A stretch of DNA of 64,000 nucleotides from Candidatus Humimicrobiaceae bacterium (GTDB lineage Bacteria > Actinomycetota > Humimicrobiia > Humimicrobiales > Humimicrobiaceae). This document shows, piece by piece, positions 28,262-61,905 of the stretch (position 1 is the first letter of the stretch; each line of letters starts with the position of its first letter). Made by a program: the position numbers and the translations under genes. The stretch is taken from positions 122 through 64,121 of the forward strand of contig DATBWH010000051.1 in the NCBI GenBank assembly GCA_036514895.1, given 5' to 3'. The notes below the pieces were generated by a model. That model had not been told where the DNA came from and made no database searches. It worked only from the letters and a program-made list of their open reading frames with translations.

Positions 28262-28472
28262 TTGACATTAATAATATAATGTATTAACATTCCTATGTAA
28301 TCTGCAATTTTTAGTTTTATTGAAAATTTAAATTTTATTAGTAATAGAGGCTAAGACTTACATTTCGTTATTGGGCACTTTGAAATGTAACGAGCCAGTG
28401 GTGCAACCGGCTATTGCTTTTTTATTGGAAAAAAGTTTGCCATCTAGCCTCTATGTTAGATGGCTTTTTTTT
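28262..28472 (+). promoter_or_regulatory. Candidate cis-regulatory leader with terminator/antiterminator alternative pairing upstream of the CAP-domain gene
   Basis: A possible -35 TTGACA at 28262. A terminator hairpin GCCATCTA-GCCTCTATGT-TAGATGGC plus T8 lies at 28439-28472. The upstream segment TAGAGGCTA (28345-28353) is exactly complementary to TAGCCTCTA in the 5' arm and loop of the terminator. An additional 9-bp hairpin is TTACATTTC/GAAATGTAA. Confidence 0.45.
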
Positions 28473-34868: not shown

Positions 34869-35162
34869 TTATTTACCAAGCTCCTTTTTTACTTCTTCTT
34901 CTCCTGCCTTAAGTTCTTCTACTTGCTGCTTATCTTCTCCCAACAGTAGGGTTTGAAATTCTCCAACATGAGTTTTTTCTTCCTTGGCCACATCCATCAG
35001 GATCACTTTTATATCATTATTTTCAGTAATGGCAGCCAGCTGCTCATATAAATTTATGGCATCAAGTTCTGCAATTATCGCAACTCTAAGAATTTCCTTA
35101 TTGATATTTGCTTTATCTACTTTTGTCAGATCAATCGGAATATCGGACATCATTGCTATCAC
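34869..35162 (-). CDS. Small ferritin-like (rubrerythrin-type half-domain) protein
   Basis: A 97-aa, two-helix protein with a glutamate-rich helix (ELDAINLYEQ) and an ExxH motif (EEKTH), suggesting a diiron half-site. Confidence 0.45.
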   Translation of the reverse strand: MIAMMSDIPIDLTKVDKANINKEILRVAIIAELDAINLYEQLAAITENNDIKVILMDVAKEEKTHVGEFQTLLLGEDKQQVEELKAGEEEVKKELGK

Positions 35163-35260
35163 CCCTTTAAAATTTGATAATTTTAAACCAACCTAATCTT
35201 TGATTTTTGGCTTATCCAACAAGATTAGCCTTTGTCTTAATTTCGGTAAATAACTATTTA

Positions 35261-35887
35261 TCAATCCAGGATTTTAAAAGTCTCGATAGCAGCATCAAAA
35301 TCCTGTAAATTTTCATCAAATTGTTCTAAATCGGTGGAAAAGGTCAGTATCCAGAAATCAGATCCATTCTTTATAATATATTGAGCCACTTTTGTCTCAT
35401 TAGACTCGACAGTTTGCTCGAATATGGTCCTTCCAACCTCTTCGTTATCACCGAGTGCGACGATTTCTTGTTCAACAATATTGAATGTATACTTTGCTTT
35501 TTCATATTGCTCCGCCACACTTTCATATGAGATATCCATGTATTCTTGAAGTGATAAAACTACCTTGGATTCACCGGTAATAGTAAAAATATTTACATTA
35601 CCATTTTCCTCAATCACTTCCGCATCATATCCAAAAAATACCAGATAATCTCTATTGGCGTCCACTACATCGGCCAGTTTTGATAGACCTGCTTTATTAA
35701 GATTCTCTATTACAGAATCAAGTTCTTCTTTCTTGGCGCCTTCCCAATTTTCCGGTAGGGTTATCTCAAAATCTCCTCCGTTAAATTCGGGCACAGTAGG
35801 CTGTGCTGCAGTTTTACAGCCAGCTCCGATCAGAACCATTGATACCGATATGATAATCGTCATTGATATCAAAAAAAATTTCTTCAT
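35261..35887 (-). CDS. Putative lipoprotein
   Basis: A signal peptide with the lipobox LIGAGC. Confidence 0.55.
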   Translation of the reverse strand: MKKFFLISMTIIISVSMVLIGAGCKTAAQPTVPEFNGGDFEITLPENWEGAKKEELDSVIENLNKAGLSKLADVVDANRDYLVFFGYDAEVIEENGNVNIFTITGESKVVLSLQEYMDISYESVAEQYEKAKYTFNIVEQEIVALGDNEEVGRTIFEQTVESNETKVAQYIIKNGSDFWILTFSTDLEQFDENLQDFDAAIETFKILD

Positions 35888-36299
35888 AATTTCCCCTTAA
35901 TTCTCTTTTTCATATTAAATTAATATTTTGGGTAAAACATATTATATCAGTTTTAGTCATACTTGTTAGTCTAATTTATGATTAGTTAAATACCTGTTCT
36001 CTAGCGATTCGATTTAGATTGTTCCAGAAACCATTCGTATAGTTCTGGGTTATTATAGGTCTCCGTCCAGCAATCATTCCCCAATTCCGGATAAAGAGTA
36101 AACTTTACGTTCCCACCGCAATTTTTTAATGCTCCAACCATTATCGCTGATTTCTCGGGCAGTACGGTTGTATCTTTTGCCCCGTAGAGGAATAATAACC
36201 GCAGCCCATAGTCGGAATAACCAGAAAAAAAGTTAAAAAAGAAAGTAAAATAAGTTTATATTTTCTAATCATCTTAAATAAATTCTTTTTCTCTTTATT

Positions 36300-36899
36300 T
36301 TATGTGAAATATTTTTCTACAGTTTTTCTGACATCTTCAAGCCAGCTTTTTCTTTTTTCCGGGGTACTTGTCACTATTACTCCATACATTTTTCTATAAA
36401 AATTTTTTACACCGCATAGACCGAATATGCAATTATTCCATAGATTCTCAAGTGGATCCTCAAACACTTTCTTTTCTCTTCCTGCCGGTGTGTTGGAAGT
36501 ATTAAAAACCAGGGCGGTCCCTGCTTTTAAAAGACCATGCGGTTTACCCTCTCCACCGTCACCTTCAAGAAATTTATATGCAACTCCGGGACGTAGTACC
36601 CGATCAACCCAGCCTTTTAAAATGGCAGGCGGTTGACCCCACCAGTTGGGATGTACAATTATTATTCCATCAGATTCAGAAATCTCTTCACAGTATTTCT
36701 GGATTACCGGATCAAATATTCGATCTTCCAGTATTTCTTCTTCAGGAAGTACAGGATTAAATTTTTCAGTATACAAATCATGGAAAAACACTTCATGTCC
36801 TAAATGTCCAAGGGTTGTTGTAATAACTCCGGCAATAGCATGATTAAAACTACCCTTTCTTGGATGTGCAAGAATGACCGATATTTTCATTTTTATCAA
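36300..36899 (-). CDS. Flavodoxin-like fold NAD(P)H dehydrogenase (quinone) family protein
   Basis: MKISVILAHPRKGSFNHAI... is typical of the Flavodoxin_2/NQO-like family. Confidence 0.8.
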   Translation of the reverse strand: MIKMKISVILAHPRKGSFNHAIAGVITTTLGHLGHEVFFHDLYTEKFNPVLPEEEILEDRIFDPVIQKYCEEISESDGIIIVHPNWWGQPPAILKGWVDRVLRPGVAYKFLEGDGGEGKPHGLLKAGTALVFNTSNTPAGREKKVFEDPLENLWNNCIFGLCGVKNFYRKMYGVIVTSTPEKRKSWLEDVRKTVEKYFT

Positions 36900-36901
36900 A
36901 A

Positions 36902-37246
36902 TTATTTTAGTAACTTATCTAATGCGGTTCGTGCATCGGGTGCCGTCTTGAAAAAATCTTCAAGTTTATCACAGGTATACATAACACAACCTGCACAATT
37001 TTCCAGCTCTTTCTCTGTGCAGCATTTACGTATTTCACAGATATTGCAGTAGGAAAACTTCTGCTCTTCCGATCGGCAGCCATTGCAGTTGATATCCTCC
37101 GGTTTGATATCCGTTTTATACATTTCCGACCACTGTTTGGCCACTTCCATACGTTTGCTGTCATCATTTTTTTGTGTGGCGATATATGCCCCACATTCAG
37201 AACAATTCAATCCACAGCAGGCAAAAATATCTTTACTTTCTCTCAT
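36902..37246 (-). CDS. DUF3795 cysteine-rich domain protein
   Basis: The CCGLNCSECGAYIATQKNDD...W pattern and further Cys pairs match DUF3795. Confidence 0.6.
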   Translation of the reverse strand: MRESKDIFACCGLNCSECGAYIATQKNDDSKRMEVAKQWSEMYKTDIKPEDINCNGCRSEEQKFSYCNICEIRKCCTEKELENCAGCVMYTCDKLEDFFKTAPDARTALDKLLK

Positions 37247-38141
37247 TTACTACATCTACCTTCTTTCTGTAAGAAAACATTTTATCATAATTATCCAATT
37301 TATATTTTTTAATAAGACCATTCGAATATTTCCTTATTTTTTTTGCATATTCCTTATCACAATAATCTGTTTTATAAAGTTTTTCATAATCCGAAACCAG
37401 TTCTGGATACTTTTCCTTGATAAAGGTCATGACCCTTTTCTTTGCTTCCTCCCTGAAATTAAGCATATCGATTATCAAATAATCGGCACCATTTTTAGCT
37501 ACCTCAGCAATAAGATTTTCGAGATTGTTTTCATTATCCGAAATATATGGAAATAAAGGTATAGAAGTTACTCCAACTATTATTCCTGCATCGTGAAATT
37601 GTTTTACAACCTCAAGACGTCTTTTTATTCCGGGTGATTTCGGTTCTATCTTCTTTTTAAAATCTTCATCCAGCACCGGTATTGTGATAACAACATTAAG
37701 AAATCCTGTCCGGGAAATTTCCTTTAGTATGTCTATATCCCTTAAAATCAAATCTGATTTGGTAGTGACCATAAGTGCATTATGATGTTTAAGAAATACT
37801 TTTAAAATCTCACGCGTAATCCTGAATTCTTTTTCTGCAGGTTGATATGGATCGGTGACAGTTGCCATATTGACGGTCCATTTCTTGTTCCATTTTTCTT
37901 TCGAGAATTCCCTGTCAAGTGCTTCGGCTGCGTTGTCTTTAACTATGATTTTGTAGGCAAACTTTCCAGTTGGAAGGCCGAGATATTCATGAGTATATCG
38001 TGCGTTGCAATACAGGCAATTATGTTCACATCCACGGTATGGGTTGATTCCCCATCTGAAAGGCAGAAACCAGACATTTAGCCGATGAAGCATTTTTTCA
38101 ACCGAGGTATGCTCATAAATGATTTCTTTTGATTCTTCCAT
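37233..38141 (-). CDS. Radical SAM protein, SplB/DNA-repair-photolyase-like (COG1533 type)
   Basis: The CxxxCxxC motif is present as GCEHNCLYCNARY. The ORF is 302 aa and overlaps the ORFs on both sides. Confidence 0.8.
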   Translation of the reverse strand: MEESKEIIYEHTSVEKMLHRLNVWFLPFRWGINPYRGCEHNCLYCNARYTHEYLGLPTGKFAYKIIVKDNAAEALDREFSKEKWNKKWTVNMATVTDPYQPAEKEFRITREILKVFLKHHNALMVTTKSDLILRDIDILKEISRTGFLNVVITIPVLDEDFKKKIEPKSPGIKRRLEVVKQFHDAGIIVGVTSIPLFPYISDNENNLENLIAEVAKNGADYLIIDMLNFREEAKKRVMTFIKEKYPELVSDYEKLYKTDYCDKEYAKKIRKYSNGLIKKYKLDNYDKMFSYRKKVDVVNERK

Positions 38142-38664
38142 AGTTCAGTTTTAAAAAAGGTATCATCATGGGTACTTTATCCTTATATTCGATAAATTTG
38201 CTGCCAAAATCTTTAAGCAGTCTCTTCTCTTCGATAAACCTGAGATAGATGATTCCCCAAAAAAATAAAAAAACCAATACTGCAATACAAACCAAAGAAT
38301 CCAGATAAATCGCCAATCCGAAATATACTAAAAACATACCAAAGACCATCGGATTACGTGAATATCTGTAGGGTCCCTTTATTACCAATTTTTTTGTCCG
38401 TGGACTGATCTCAACACCAAATCCGTCTGCAGGACCACCTTTTCCTATTACAAATAATACTATATTGGACCATATTGCAAATATCATTCCGATTAGAAAA
38501 AACGGAGTAGATATGATTATTTGTAAATTAATATTATCAATCATTTTTACTCCTACCCATGTGTTTGTATCACTACCCAACCTGTAGAGCAGAAATGGGA
38601 TCAGAATTATGAAAATAAAAAAACCGATCATATATCCGAAAATGTATCTATAAAGTTTTTTCAT
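38113..38664 (-). CDS. Isoprenylcysteine carboxyl methyltransferase (ICMT)/phospholipid methyltransferase-family membrane protein
   Basis: A multi-TM protein with the conserved C-terminal segment KKLVIKGPYRYSRNPMVFGMFLVYFGLAI. Confidence 0.7.
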   Translation of the reverse strand: MKKLYRYIFGYMIGFFIFIILIPFLLYRLGSDTNTWVGVKMIDNINLQIIISTPFFLIGMIFAIWSNIVLFVIGKGGPADGFGVEISPRTKKLVIKGPYRYSRNPMVFGMFLVYFGLAIYLDSLVCIAVLVFLFFWGIIYLRFIEEKRLLKDFGSKFIEYKDKVPMMIPFLKLNYGRIKRNHL

Positions 38665-39728
38665 TTGATAATTTTAAAACAACGCTGTTTTTTATTTTTC
38701 ATGCACTCTTTTGATTCGCATTTGTAGCAAATCTCGTTCTTAAGATATCCTGCACTGAAAAATTCTTTTAAGTTGTCGAGTGTGGTCTCTGCAATATTAT
38801 GCAGGGCTTCTTTTGTAAAGAATCCCTGATGTGAGGTGATGAGGACATTCGGAAAAGTTATTAGACGGGCTAAAATATCATCGGATATCATCTCCGTAGA
38901 ATAATCTTCAAAGAAATACTCACTTTCTTCCTCGTAAACATCCAGACCGGCCGAGCCTACCTTACCGGCTTTAAGCATTTTTATAAGTGCACTGGTATGT
39001 ATCAGTTTTCCTCTTCCGGTATTTATAATCATGACTCCATCCTTCATTATCTTGATGGTCCTTTCATTAATCATGTGTTCGGTTTCACGTGTAAGCGGAC
39101 AATGAAGTGAAATAATATCCGATTTTTTAAAAAGCTCATCCAAGCTTACGTATTTGAATTTCATTTCTTTCACATAGATCTCATCAGGATAAGGATCGTA
39201 TGCCAGGATTTTCATACCGAATCCCTTTAATATCGAAATAAGAACTTTTCCTATCTTACCTGTTCCTATTATTCCTGCTGTCTTTCCATACATATCAAAT
39301 CCAAGCAATCCGTTAATGGAAAAATTACCGTCACGTATGCGGTTATACGCCTTATGGATCTTCCGATTAAGCGAGAGTATTAGCGCGGCAGCATGTTCTG
39401 CTACCGCATAGGGAGAATAAGCGGGCACCCGAACCACATGGATTTTACCAAAAGCTGCCTTAAAATCGACATTATTATATCCTGCACTTCGAAGGGCTAT
39501 TATTTCAATATTATGCTCAAATAAATGCTTTATGACTTCTTTATTGATTGTGTCGTTTACAAAAGCGCATACTGCATCAAATCCATATGTTAGTTCCACT
39601 GTCTGAGGATTAAGATGTGCATCAAAATAGTTAATATTAAATCCAAAACTTTCATTGACTCTATCAAATGATTCCCGGTCATATGGTTTCGCATCAAAGA
39701 AAGCTATTTTTTTATTTAAATTTTTCAT
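38661..39728 (-). CDS. ldhA: Fermentative D-lactate dehydrogenase (D-2-hydroxyacid dehydrogenase family) with Cys-rich C-terminal tail
   Basis: Close resemblance by eye along the whole length to E. coli LdhA (VNESFGF..., VVRVPAYSPYAVAEHA, MYGKTAGIIGTGKIG, SLHCPLT). The extra C-terminal tail is CYKCESKEC...C. Confidence 0.9.
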   Translation of the reverse strand: MKNLNKKIAFFDAKPYDRESFDRVNESFGFNINYFDAHLNPQTVELTYGFDAVCAFVNDTINKEVIKHLFEHNIEIIALRSAGYNNVDFKAAFGKIHVVRVPAYSPYAVAEHAAALILSLNRKIHKAYNRIRDGNFSINGLLGFDMYGKTAGIIGTGKIGKVLISILKGFGMKILAYDPYPDEIYVKEMKFKYVSLDELFKKSDIISLHCPLTRETEHMINERTIKIMKDGVMIINTGRGKLIHTSALIKMLKAGKVGSAGLDVYEEESEYFFEDYSTEMISDDILARLITFPNVLITSHQGFFTKEALHNIAETTLDNLKEFFSAGYLKNEICYKCESKECMKNKKQRCFKIIK

Positions 39729-39736
39729 TCAAGTTC

Positions 39737-40123
39737 CTATTTCTTTTTAAGCCATTGGATATATTCAAGAATATTATTATCCGGATCGGAGAAATATACC
39801 CATGCCGCATCATCCTTTGTCTCAAGTGGGCCGTGTACTATAGGAATATTACTCTTCCTGAGTAGATCAACTGAGGATCCCATATTTTCAACTTCCAGAC
39901 AAAAATGGGGACAGTATGGCTTTTTTATTTCAGATTTTTTGTACTCTCCTTTTAGATCCAGGATTAACTCAAGTCGTGCATCTTCATGTTCCAGGAACGC
40001 ATATTCTTCCTTCTCTTCTTCATTTGTGACTCTGGATTTGAGTTTAAATCCCATTTTTTTGGTGTAAAAACTAATAGAAGAATCCATATCTGAAACCTGA
40101 AAGGCAAAATGATCAAAGCTCAT
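39737..40123 (-). CDS. VOC/glyoxalase-bleomycin resistance family protein
   Basis: FDHFAFQVSDMDSSISFY and a C-terminal HFCLEVEN are typical of VOC-fold proteins. Length 128 aa. Confidence 0.7.
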   Translation of the reverse strand: MSFDHFAFQVSDMDSSISFYTKKMGFKLKSRVTNEEEKEEYAFLEHEDARLELILDLKGEYKKSEIKKPYCPHFCLEVENMGSSVDLLRKSNIPIVHGPLETKDDAAWVYFSDPDNNILEYIQWLKKK

Positions 40124-40200
40124 TACGTTCTCCTTTAAATATATTAATATAAAAGTATGATCCTGTATCCTTTTATTTCGAAACTTGTTAATATTTAACT

Positions 40201-40362
40201 TGGTCGGGATGGGGGGATTTGTTCTTTCGTCTCGCTTCGCTCGCTGCAGAGACGCAGACTCCCTCGCTGACGCTCAGTCCGTCTTTTCAAATCCCGTAAA
40301 TATGCCACTGGTATGTTTACCTGCAATAATTTTAAAATTTCTCATGCTTTTTAACCTAAATC
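40201..40362 (-). repeat. Degenerate tRNA-like remnant sharing the 3'-terminal 21 nt (and the 5' CGGGAT) of the adjacent tRNA-Pro
   Basis: TGGTCGGGATGGGGGGATTTG at 40201-40221 is identical to 40364-40384. The intervening 142 bp is GC-rich with internal hairpins and has no T-stem partner. Confidence 0.6.
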
Positions 40363-40441
40363 TGGTCGGGATGGGGGGATTTGAACCCCCGGCCTCAGCG
40401 TCCCGAACGCTGCGCGCTAAACCAAGCTGCGCTACATCCCG
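40363..40441 (-). tRNA. tRNA-Pro (anticodon CGG)
   Basis: The minus-strand sequence CGGGATG TA GCGC...CAGCG TTCGGGA CGCTG...GGGGG TTCAAAT CCCCC CATCCCG A CCA folds as a cloverleaf. The anticodon loop is UUCGGGA, with G37 and an encoded CCA. Confidence 0.85.
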
Positions 40442-40619
40442 ATCAAACAATCCCTACTTGAGCATAATATATTCTATCAACTCCGGATAGGATTTAAAAG
40501 AAAATAAAGGTGTTAAAATTATAGGCAAAATCATCTTTTAAAAAACCTCACAAAGTAGTATAAATCTAAGAATATATTTAAGTATATATTTTTGACGTTA
40601 ATTTTAATTTATTTGTAAT

Positions 40620-41957
40620 ATGGATGTTAGAAAATTTATTTTGAGTTTTAAAAATAACTTTAAAATAATCTCGCAGTCTTTAAAATCCAGAAACTATAGA
40701 TTATTCTTTATCGGCCAGAGCGTATCGCTTATTGGAACGTGGATGCAGGTAATAGCCTTAAGCTGGCTCGTGTATGACCTTACAAATTCTGCATTGCTGC
40801 TTGGACTGGTTGGTTTTTTCAGCCAGGTACCGTCATTTTTCATTACACCCTTTTCGGGAGTACTAGTAGACAGATGGAACCGGCATAGAATACTCATCGC
40901 TACACAGGTTTTATCTATGATTCAGGCATTTATTCTGGCTTTTCTAACTCTTTCAGGGAAAATAACAATCTTACAGGTTATCCTTCTTAGCCTGGGCCTG
41001 GGATTAATTAATGCTTTCGATATGCCGGCAAGACAGGCTTTTGTAATCGAGATGGTCGAAAAAAGAAGTGACCTTGCAAATGCAATCGCGCTGAATTCTT
41101 CGATGGTAAACAGTGCGAGATTAATCGGTCCCGCAATTGCCGGAATACTTGTGGCTGCCGTCGGTGAAGGCTTTTGTTTTCTGATAAATGGCATAACCTT
41201 CATGTCTGTTATCTTCTCTCTCCTTGCTATGAGACTTAAGAAAAAACCGAAACATAGATATTCCAATAATATTTTACAGGATATAAAAGAAGGTTTCAGA
41301 TATTCCTTCGGTTTTATTCCGATAAGATCGATTTTACTTTTCCTGGGACTCGTAAGTTTTATCGGCATGCCTTATACGGTATTTATGCCTATTTTTGCAA
41401 AGGATATTTTGCACGGCGGTCCTAATCTTCTGGGTTACCTGATGTCTCTGGGGGGTATAGGAGCGTTACTGGGAGGAATTTATCTTGCTTCAAGAAAAAC
41501 CATTGTGGGTCTGGGGCGAATCCTGGCTGCAGCAACCGGCATATTTGGAATAAGTTTGATATTGTTTTCGACATCCCGAATTTTATGGCTTTCACTTCTT
41601 ATGATGCTGGTAAGCGGATTTGGCATGATAATACATATAGCTGCCTCCAATACTATTCTGCAAACAATAACCGAGGATGATAAACGCGGGCGTGTCATGA
41701 GTTTTTTCACAATGTCTTTTATGGGAATGACACCGTTTGGTACTTTATTGGAAGGTGCTCTTGCCAATTGGATTGGCGCAGCCAATATAGTATTGATAAG
41801 CGGCGGGATATGCATACTGGGTACTATCATTTTTTCGATCAAACTTCCAGCGATAAGAAAAATTGTGAGACCTATATATATAAAAAGGGGAATCATAAGT
41901 GAAATTGCAAAAGGTGTTCAGGTAGCAAGCGATGCAAAGATCCCGCCTAAGCCATGA
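40620..41957 (+). CDS. Major facilitator superfamily transporter
   Basis: A 445-aa protein with 12 predicted TM segments and an MFS motif region (GVLVDRWNRHRIL). Confidence 0.85.
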   Translation: MDVRKFILSFKNNFKIISQSLKSRNYRLFFIGQSVSLIGTWMQVIALSWLVYDLTNSALLLGLVGFFSQVPSFFITPFSGVLVDRWNRHRILIATQVLSMIQAFILAFLTLSGKITILQVILLSLGLGLINAFDMPARQAFVIEMVEKRSDLANAIALNSSMVNSARLIGPAIAGILVAAVGEGFCFLINGITFMSVIFSLLAMRLKKKPKHRYSNNILQDIKEGFRYSFGFIPIRSILLFLGLVSFIGMPYTVFMPIFAKDILHGGPNLLGYLMSLGGIGALLGGIYLASRKTIVGLGRILAAATGIFGISLILFSTSRILWLSLLMMLVSGFGMIIHIAASNTILQTITEDDKRGRVMSFFTMSFMGMTPFGTLLEGALANWIGAANIVLISGGICILGTIIFSIKLPAIRKIVRPIYIKRGIISEIAKGVQVASDAKIPPKP

Positions 41958-61462: not shown

Positions 61463-61905
61463 TTATGTTCTCCTCTCTTTATTTTTATAATTTCCTGACA
61501 ACAATTTCAAAATTTCTTTATTGGTATTTTTCTTAACTTCGCCATAATAAAATTTTTATTTTCATCACCTTTCCTTTCCATAAACAAAAAACCTCTCCAT
61601 CACTACATAATATTGTAGAGACGAGAGGTTTAATTCCCGCGGTGCCACCCTACTTTGCCCTAAAATCAATATAATTATTGATTCCGGAACACACTTAAAA
61701 TATTTCAGATACTTTAAATACCCTATCCTCTGGTAACGGAGGAAGCCGGCCTGACTTACTCTCTAATAAAAGATTTGAGCCAGACACCTCACAGACCCAT
61801 TCAGACACCAGCTTAGCAACCGCATTCTCAGCTTCAGCGGCTCTCTGTATGCTGCATTCAGTGCTTACTATCTCTGGTCACAGGTTTTGTTGGAAATATT
61901 TAATT
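61463..61905 (-). promoter_or_regulatory. T-box riboswitch leader upstream of trpB2
   Basis: The minus-strand RNA contains AAAGUAGGGUGGCACCGCGGG (T-box consensus AAnnnGGGUGGnACCGCG; plus-strand 61636-61655). A terminator follows directly, with an AACCUCUC/GAGAGGUU stem plus U6 (plus-strand 61585-61630). Confidence 0.65.

Follow-up and report, generated by a model that had tools for sequence, protein, structure and literature searches.

Plasticity zones and genomic islets beside tRNA genes carry variable accessory genes between conserved flanks, next to a tRNA gene with a duplicated 3' end. Among the radical S-adenosylmethionine (SAM) enzymes, the COG1533 'DNA repair photolyase' superfamily contains the spore photoproduct lyase (SPL) and the bacterial 'SplB-like' families Rv2578c and PA0069. 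COG1533 'SplB' genes are regulated by LexA within the SOS response in several phyla (PMC3381160, PMC4951493, PMC8565304). Here we describe a six-gene cluster at 36300-40123 on the minus strand of a 64,000-nucleotide (nt) stretch of DNA from a Candidatus Humimicrobiaceae bacterium (contig DATBWH010000051.1; the whole stretch is hereafter the window). The locus falls into known kinds, being an accessory operon in a plasticity zone that includes a member of an uncharacterised COG1533 subfamily. It shares with other plasticity zones the features given above; unlike them, it has operon-like genes with overlapping open reading frames and keeps a conserved three-gene core, and no integrase was seen, though no search aimed at integrases was made. 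The six genes, in gene order, are as follows.

39737-40123, minus strand: VOC (glyoxalase-I-like) gene, first in the cluster, 128 aa
38661-39728, minus strand: 2-hydroxyacid dehydrogenase (DH), 355 aa
38113-38664, minus strand: PEMT/ICMT-like methyltransferase, 183 aa
37233-38141, minus strand: radical SAM enzyme (rSAM), 302 aa
36902-37246, minus strand: DUF3795 protein, 114 aa
36300-36899 (TTG start, 199 aa) or 36300-36890 (ATG start, 196 aa), minus strand: flavoprotein (FLAV)

On balance, we favour the interpretation that the cluster is a compact, probably co-transcribed accessory operon, a mosaic within a hypervariable island of an uncultured groundwater Actinomycetota, and that it does not encode one pathway. 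The island would be filled, in each relative, by a different subset and order of genes from a shared pool of small stress/detoxification-type genes, comprising VOC, D-lactate dehydrogenase (D-LDH), PEMT/ICMT methyltransferases, COG1533 rSAM, DUF3795, flavoprotein, UDG, SnoaL, class-I methyltransferases, and GNATs. Within the cluster, comparison with relatives supports two putative sub-modules, VOC with D-LDH, and rSAM with DUF3795 directly behind it, the latter pair apparently coupled in translation.

The comparison of the same chromosomal site in relatives (L numbers denote loci or lineages) carries this interpretation. The flanks are conserved, with CoaX-Dus-MFS-tRNA-Pro on one side and hyp208-rubrerythrin-DUF192-TPR-RcpC/Tad on the other. 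The genes between them are listed below (MT, methyltransferase; OMT, O-methyltransferase).

Window: VOC-DH-PEMT-rSAM-DUF3795-FLAV
L126 and L009: VOC-rSAM-DUF3795 (the VOC gene of L126 by hidden Markov model (HMM) search)
L012: VOC-rSAM-DUF3795-three methyltransferases
L094: rSAM-DUF3795-methyltransferases
L093: VOC-DH-PEMT-rSAM-DUF3795-ICMT
L090: VOC-ATC_hydrolase-rSAM-DUF3795-SnoaL-...
L010: VOC-adenosine deaminase-rSAM-PEMT-like
L011: VOC-truncated PEMT-rSAM-DUF3795 fragment-UDG-VOC(-)-DUF3795-SnoaL-x-FLAV
L181: VOC-VOC(72%)-DH(85%)-Rce1-like-DUF3795(74%)-GNAT, then the same downstream flank; no rSAM
L180: CoaX-Dus-...-DH(87%)-VOC-PEMT-MT-DUF6064-PEMT-UDG-DUF3795(73%)-SnoaL-OMT-SPASM rSAM-GNAT; no COG1533 rSAM

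The full six-gene set is present only in the window organism. The VOC-rSAM-DUF3795 core is syntenic in relatives, its proteins are 80-91% identical, and a VOC orthologue lies upstream of the rSAM gene in most sister loci. The other three genes come and go. A DH gene is found in an rSAM-bearing cluster only in the window and in L093, and it stands at the same island without rSAM in L180 and L181. The PEMT orthologue is intact in L093, is reduced to a decayed remnant in L011, and is absent from L126, L009, and L012. An orthologue of the NQO-type flavoprotein is found elsewhere in L011 only, 3.5 kb from rSAM, and outside the window organism such a flavoprotein never lies within 2.5 kb of rSAM. 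The idea that DH is unique to the window organism was rejected, as the metagenome scan gave L093 (DH and PEMT in the same order) and orthologues in L180-L182.

Locus L011 provides direct evidence of insertion and decay inside the cluster. Its rSAM gene is flanked by a truncated PEMT gene (104 aa, 1192-1506) and a DUF3795 fragment (68 aa, 2331-2537), and a UDG gene and a second VOC gene are inserted ahead of an intact DUF3795 gene. The decayed PEMT gene favours a DH-PEMT block that is old and repeatedly lost over one exchanged between lineages; in either case, the block is dispensable. A sequence-only reading of this DNA had treated the six genes as one module, but their linkage is not conserved, an outcome named in that reading as a refutation: sister genomes hold other subsets at the same site. 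A six-enzyme pathway, as first framed, would have pointed to new chemistry; the comparative data make that an over-reading of gene packing in a compact genome, and tight coupling by itself is no proof of a shared pathway.

The packing itself, as described in the sequence-only reading, is borne out. In gene order, an 8-nt gap separates VOC and DH, DH and PEMT overlap by 4 nt (ATGA), PEMT and rSAM by 29 nt, and rSAM and DUF3795 by 14 nt, and the gap between DUF3795 and the flavoprotein gene is 2 nt with the TTG start or 11 nt with the ATG start at 36890, which is the one used by gene callers. Only the VOC gene, among the six, has a strong Shine-Dalgarno sequence (AAAGGAG), and no terminator-like sites lie between the six genes. 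The numbers of promoter-like matches (26 vs 19.8 +/- 5.3) and of terminator-like matches (4 vs 3.2 +/- 1.9) are what chance would give. An Rfam search gives no regulatory RNA within or beside the cluster. The tight junctions and the lack of intergenic terminators make the proposed single operon plausible, and the six genes probably form one transcription unit. The same gene arrangement is found in eight independent assemblies of the same organism, including NCBI GCA_001775775.1. Therefore, the arrangement is no assembly artefact.

All six proteins exceed the cut-offs of their Pfam families, in agreement with the earlier family calls, and none reaches an NCBIfam equivalog cut-off. PADLOC anti-phage defence models match none of the six. 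The methyltransferase passes the PEMT model (PF04191; 56.4 bits, cut-off 25) and fails the ICMT model (PF04140; 19.2 bits, cut-off 24), which argues for a predicted integral-membrane enzyme of the PEMT type, not strictly an ICMT. In two other loci, L053 (11244-11900) and L079 (11238-11894), both of Heimdall/Promethearchaeota, a gene of the PEMT family and a distant rSAM paralogue run towards each other, the former overlapping the 3' end of the latter; this is a second, independent juxtaposition of PEMT and rSAM. In addition, an Rce1-like gene (CAAX protease family) lies between DH and DUF3795 in L181 (6150-6920), and an ICMT-family gene follows DUF3795 in L093 (4106-4792); thus, two families named for CAAX processing occupy equivalent positions in the island.

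The rSAM protein matches Radical_SAM (PF04055) with 57.3 bits (cut-off 29.5). Its CX3CX2C motif, C38/C42/C45, is invariant in the alignment of orthologues (alignment A1), as is only one further cysteine, C261, and the alignment contains no auxiliary-cluster motifs (SPASM or twitch cysteines). Like the Rv2578c and PA0069 families, to which it is homologous over its full length, the protein thus has CX3CX2C and no auxiliary clusters. It scores 232.4 bits (cut-off 430, E = 7e-69) against the Rv2578c model (NF038135) and 219.6 bits (cut-off 360, E = 6e-65) against the PA0069 model (NF033668). Scores of about half the cut-offs argue for a separate subfamily. By sequence, it is a distinct, uncharacterised, highly conserved COG1533 subfamily, mainly archaeal. 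Orthologues that are 59-91% identical extend from the Actinomycetota to Thermoplasmatota, Methanofastidiosa, Bathyarchaeia, Nitrososphaeria, and Asgard archaea, and the identity across domains is 59-77%. The subfamily differs from Rv2578c and PA0069 in being mainly archaeal with one Actinomycetota clade, in its very strong conservation, and in that those bacterial families are SOS-regulated and no LexA box was found for the window rSAM.

The resemblance to SPL proposed earlier holds only at the superfamily level and does not extend to the SPL family. The protein has a similar size and a radical SAM fold, and the SPL structure 4fhg is among the fold matches of its low-confidence model. The window protein gives no match to the Pfam SPL model (PF20903) at E <= 0.01, and its orthologue P0013, at 16.9 bits, stays under the cut-off of 27. 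Spore formation is not known from the host lineage. A search of the PDB gives no sequence relatives of the rSAM protein, and the literature search found no biochemical characterisation of COG1533 enzymes other than SPL. In many bacteria, COG1533 genes belong to the core SOS set without an assigned function, which would make the substrate of any one of them valuable to know. What the locus retains in value is this unusually conserved cross-domain subfamily of the long-unexplained 'SplB-like' enzymes, for which the coupled DUF3795 partner, the alternative flavoprotein neighbours, and the AlkZ-like or UDG glycosylase neighbours are leads.

The comparison of neighbours was anchored on the rSAM gene. 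Scans of species-level genomes and of metagenomes gave 105 orthologue loci (55-100% identity), which were dereplicated at 95% identity to 69 lineages; 43 loci with distant rSAM paralogues (28-39% identity) served as controls. Neighbours were counted within 2.5 kb of rSAM and compared by Fisher tests. Plain tblastn is too insensitive for the archaeal partners; phmmer, family HMMs, and Pfam revealed divergent DUF3795, VOC, and flavoprotein neighbours, and neighbour identities were checked with Pfam. Most of the orthologues are archaeal (Thermoplasmatota, Methanofastidiosa, Bathyarchaeia, Nitrososphaeria, and Asgard), and the remainder belong to one uncultured Actinomycetota clade that includes the window. 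The counts are as follows.

DUF3795: 10 of 69 lineages vs 0 of 43 controls, p = 0.006
VOC: 11 of 69 vs 1 of 43, p = 0.02
Any flavoprotein: 9 of 69 vs 0 of 43, p = 0.01
AlkZ-like DNA glycosylase: 6 of 69 vs 0 of 43, p = 0.05
PEMT: 5 of 69 vs 2 of 43, not significant
DH: 2 of 69 vs 0 of 43, not significant

In about 60 archaeal rSAM lineages, DH, PEMT, and the NQO-type flavoprotein are adjacent in none. DUF3795 is the gene directly after rSAM in 8 of the 59 lineages whose downstream sequence is long enough to tell, in every case at a junction of -35 to +4 nt, and in 0 of the 43 paralogue controls. By gene context, the rSAM-DUF3795 pair is the one specific, recurrent link. Of the proposed co-occurrence of rSAM, DUF3795, and an ICMT-like gene, the first two are thus truly associated in a subclade, and linkage of the methyltransferase, at the frequencies above, does not exceed that in the controls. 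A Radical_SAM-DUF3795 pair in L175 was considered as independent confirmation and rejected; the rSAM of L175 belongs to an unrelated family.

The DUF3795 protein scores 66.7 bits against PF12675 (cut-off 22.6) and has 11 conserved cysteines, including a CX3CX2C motif (alignment A3). It has no PDB relative by sequence, and a fold search with its moderate model (pLDDT 72) is empty at E < 5; in the literature, we found only a passing mention of DUF3795, in a single paper. The richest archaeal-type version of the core is in L130 (3455-8319), where DUF3795 has three paralogues, a second rSAM paralogue directly precedes the orthologue, and VOC is encoded downstream.

The flavoprotein scores 112.3 bits against Flavodoxin_2 (PF02525; cut-off 27) and 87.7 bits against the NF007280 equivalog (under 162). 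It matches the NADPH quinone oxidoreductase 3lcm with E = 9e-17 and is NQO/MdaB-like. Flavodoxin and flavodoxin reductase form a reductant system for radical SAM enzymes in E. coli. Likewise, flavoprotein genes recur beside the rSAM orthologue: FMN_red directly beside it in Methanofastidiosa, flavodoxins directly beside it in Thermoplasmatota, and Flavodoxin_2 near it, after DUF3795, in the window cluster. Unlike in the known systems, the flavoprotein family varies by lineage, and here a Cys-rich DUF3795 gene stands between rSAM and the flavoprotein gene. The order in Methanofastidiosa is AlkZ-like, rSAM, FMN reductase, and then a small Cys-rich secreted protein.

We propose that the single CX3CX2C [4Fe-4S] site of rSAM would reductively cleave SAM to yield the 5'-deoxyadenosyl radical. 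A dedicated donor encoded by neighbouring genes would supply the electrons, here DUF3795 and the NQO-type flavoprotein, elsewhere the FMN reductase in Methanofastidiosa or the flavodoxins in Thermoplasmatota. Our best guess at the substrate, a tentative one that could well be wrong, is a damaged nucleic-acid base or crosslink, because COG1533 genes are SOS-regulated, AlkZ-like and UDG genes are neighbours, and the enzyme is conserved across domains. The lack of a LexA box here, of an SPL family match, and of an informative structure counts against such a substrate.

Several observations weigh against the favoured interpretation of a mosaic operon with a donor-coupled rSAM. First, the five-gene order VOC-DH-PEMT-rSAM-DUF3795 shared by the window and L093 spans the root of the Actinomycetota rSAM clade; in a neighbour-joining tree of rSAM, the two fall in the two different subclades. 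Because of this shared order and the decayed PEMT gene of L011, the fuller operon may date back to the ancestor, work as a coherent unit, and have lost genes later. Second, 42% of the same-strand junctions of the window are at most 15 nt and 20% overlap, so tight packing is normal here, although the six-gene run is the longest tight run in the window (the others have 5, 4, and 4 genes). Therefore, packing alone argues only weakly for functional coupling, and it is from the junctions that we infer co-transcription of the six genes. Third, 51 of the 59 rSAM lineages have no adjacent DUF3795, and close DUF3795 homologues in seven other contexts never adjoin a COG1533 rSAM. Such a partnership would be facultative at best, on both sides. 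Fourth, DUF3795 is only presumably a metal- or Fe-S-binding protein, and the Fisher tests, with paralogue loci as controls, are only modestly significant. Fifth, the AlphaFold2 model of rSAM is of low confidence (pLDDT 63.5, and below 50 for the N-terminal 69 residues). Foldseek with this model returns generic radical SAM folds only, with SPL 4fhg at rank 7 (TM 0.42), and NifB, SuiB, and PFL-AE match it as well as or better than 4fhg. Finally, the LexA (Cheo) box GAACN4GTTC has 0 matches in the window, though the lineage's own LexA motif may differ.

Of the alternatives, two that concern nucleic-acid damage survive best, although we consider both unlikely. In one, the rSAM-DUF3795 core, often with VOC, would repair nucleic-acid damage, and the whole operon would serve defence against DNA damage or genotoxins. 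The enzyme belongs to the 'DNA repair photolyase' superfamily, with members SOS-regulated in several phyla, and conservation of 59-77% across domains suggests a universal substrate. In 6 archaeal lineages, and in 0 controls, an AlkZ-like gene directly adjoins rSAM in the same orientation. The AlkZ-like gene (PF06224) is directly beside rSAM in L024, L026, L029, L141, L144, L149, and L151 (Methanofastidiosa), and also in L027 (Jordarchaeum) and L156. A UDG gene lies beside rSAM in L011 and beside DUF3795 in L169-L172, L180, and L181. However, for no COG1533 member beyond true SPL is a demonstrated substrate known, the protein fails to match the Pfam SPL model, and a search of the window gave no LexA box. 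UDG and VOC genes are common in the variable island anyway, and DH, PEMT, and the NQO-type flavoprotein have no obvious role in repair. In the second, which we likewise hold to be improbable, the rSAM group and its neighbouring donor would constitute an uncharacterised radical SAM system of anaerobes that directly reverses nucleic-acid damage, distinct from SPL and alongside the AlkZ-like and UDG glycosylases, with DUF3795 as a new small Fe-S electron-transfer protein.

A further alternative, which we judge quite improbable, is that all six genes form one reactive-carbonyl/quinone stress module, in which VOC and D-LDH would handle methylglyoxal or D-lactate, the NQO-type flavoprotein would reduce quinones, and rSAM, DUF3795, and the methyltransferase would repair or modify the same damage. 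The tight coupling of the genes and the NQO-like nature of the flavoprotein are consistent with it, and five of the six genes occur in the same order in L093. The VOC protein scores 69.6 bits against Glyoxalase (PF00903) and keeps the glyoxalase I ligands; its H5/E52/H73/E120 align with the metal ligands H5/E56/H74/E122 of E. coli GlxI. The DH protein scores 192.9 bits against 2-Hacid_dh_C (PF02826) and 100.2 bits against PF00389, and aligns over residues 6-333 with the solved D-LDH structure 5z21 (E = 7e-120). Although it scores below the cut-offs of the NCBIfam D-LDH models, its sequence identifies it as a genuine LdhA-type NAD-dependent D-lactate/D-2-hydroxyacid dehydrogenase. In addition, VOC-DH adjacency recurs, in four genomes.

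In these respects, the cluster resembles the glyoxalase I/D-lactate route (GloA, GloB, D-LDH), with a VOC fold with H/E/H/E ligands and an adjacent LdhA-type D-LDH. However, the VOC protein is far under the glyoxalase I equivalog cut-offs (TIGR00068, 45.6 vs 120 bits; NF050074, 35.2 vs 165), and the cluster contains no glyoxalase II. LdhA-type enzymes are fermentative pyruvate reductases that make D-lactate; they do not consume or oxidise D-lactate derived from methylglyoxal. The methylglyoxal-to-D-lactate pairing put forward in the sequence-only reading is therefore weak. Against the wider stress module stand also the restriction of the six-gene set to the window organism, the separate occurrence of orthologous subsets at the same site, and the archaeal rSAM orthologues without DH or NQO-type neighbours.

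The DH protein has a C-terminal Cys4 extension, residues 334-355 (38661-38726 in the window), beyond the known fold. It had been singled out as unusual, but 109 of the 120 closest D-LDH homologues (P0241-P0360), as well as L093, share the motif C-Y-K-C-x2-4-C-x7-C-F. D-LDHs with this tail are found in Planctomycetes, Marinimicrobia, Omnitrophica, Spirochaetota, Kiritimatiellia, and other phyla. By sequence comparison, the tail characterises a widespread D-LDH subfamily and is nothing special to the cluster. It is a metal-site-like extension and, as far as could be seen, apparently undescribed.

It is very unlikely that the entire cluster was brought in as cargo by a mobile element integrated at tRNA-Pro. 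The features at issue, upstream of the cluster, are as follows.

40363..40441, minus strand: tRNA-Pro (CGG), by ARAGORN; Rfam tRNA 65.8 bits
40201-40221 and 40363-40383: perfect 21-nt direct repeat; the latter copy is the tRNA-Pro 3' end, and the other is 162 nt away, downstream of the tRNA

The tRNA gene is on the strand of the cluster, 239 nt upstream of it, and the repeat copies bracket a 141-nt GC-rich spacer (40222-40362). The duplicated tRNA 3' end, a variable insertion point directly upstream of the cluster, and the variable gene content are as expected of mobile cargo. The population variant L001 lacks exactly 162 nt, that is, the 141-nt spacer and one repeat copy (alignment A2), and L126 and L009 carry other inserts at that same point. 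From its sequence, the region appears to be an att-like scar or insertion hotspot with a 162-nt presence/absence polymorphism. However, the repeat brackets these 162 nt only and not the cluster, and no further, distal copy lies downstream of the cluster within 35000-41000. The VOC-rSAM-DUF3795 core is syntenic in relatives, and the GC content of the cluster matches that of its flanks. Hardly credible is a small-molecule tailoring or biosynthetic pathway, as the cluster has no scaffold-forming enzyme or precursor peptide, its content differs between close relatives, its rSAM lacks SPASM or twitch auxiliary-cluster cysteines, and PADLOC gives no match, although sister islands (L090 and L180) hold O-methyltransferases, SnoaL_2, a SPASM-type rSAM, and GNAT, which are typical tailoring families.

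At the other edge, the variable region ends in a spacer.

35888-36299, minus strand: 412-nt spacer at the downstream edge of the variable region, with decayed coding remnants, read by eye

The remnants are a 43-codon open reading frame, whose signal is of the lipoprotein type, and, out of frame, an esterase-like C-terminus (...LYPELGNDCWTETYNNPELYEWFLEQ); they look like pseudogene remnants. RNA structure in the spacer is not significant (z = -0.58). The polymorphism at the tRNA repeat and the decayed spacer fit a recombination-prone accessory region, as in the mosaic-operon interpretation that we favour.

Beyond the spacer, hyp208 (35261-35887, minus strand) encodes a lipoprotein by prediction; its only match, PsbP-like, is weak (19 bits, under the cut-off), and the gene is syntenic in L012, L094, L126, and L181. 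Farther away, the window contains a c-di-GMP-II riboswitch (28337-28421, plus strand; 73.5 bits) upstream of the Tad-pilus region and a T-box leader (61614-61890, minus strand; 106.3 bits), both above the Rfam gathering score.

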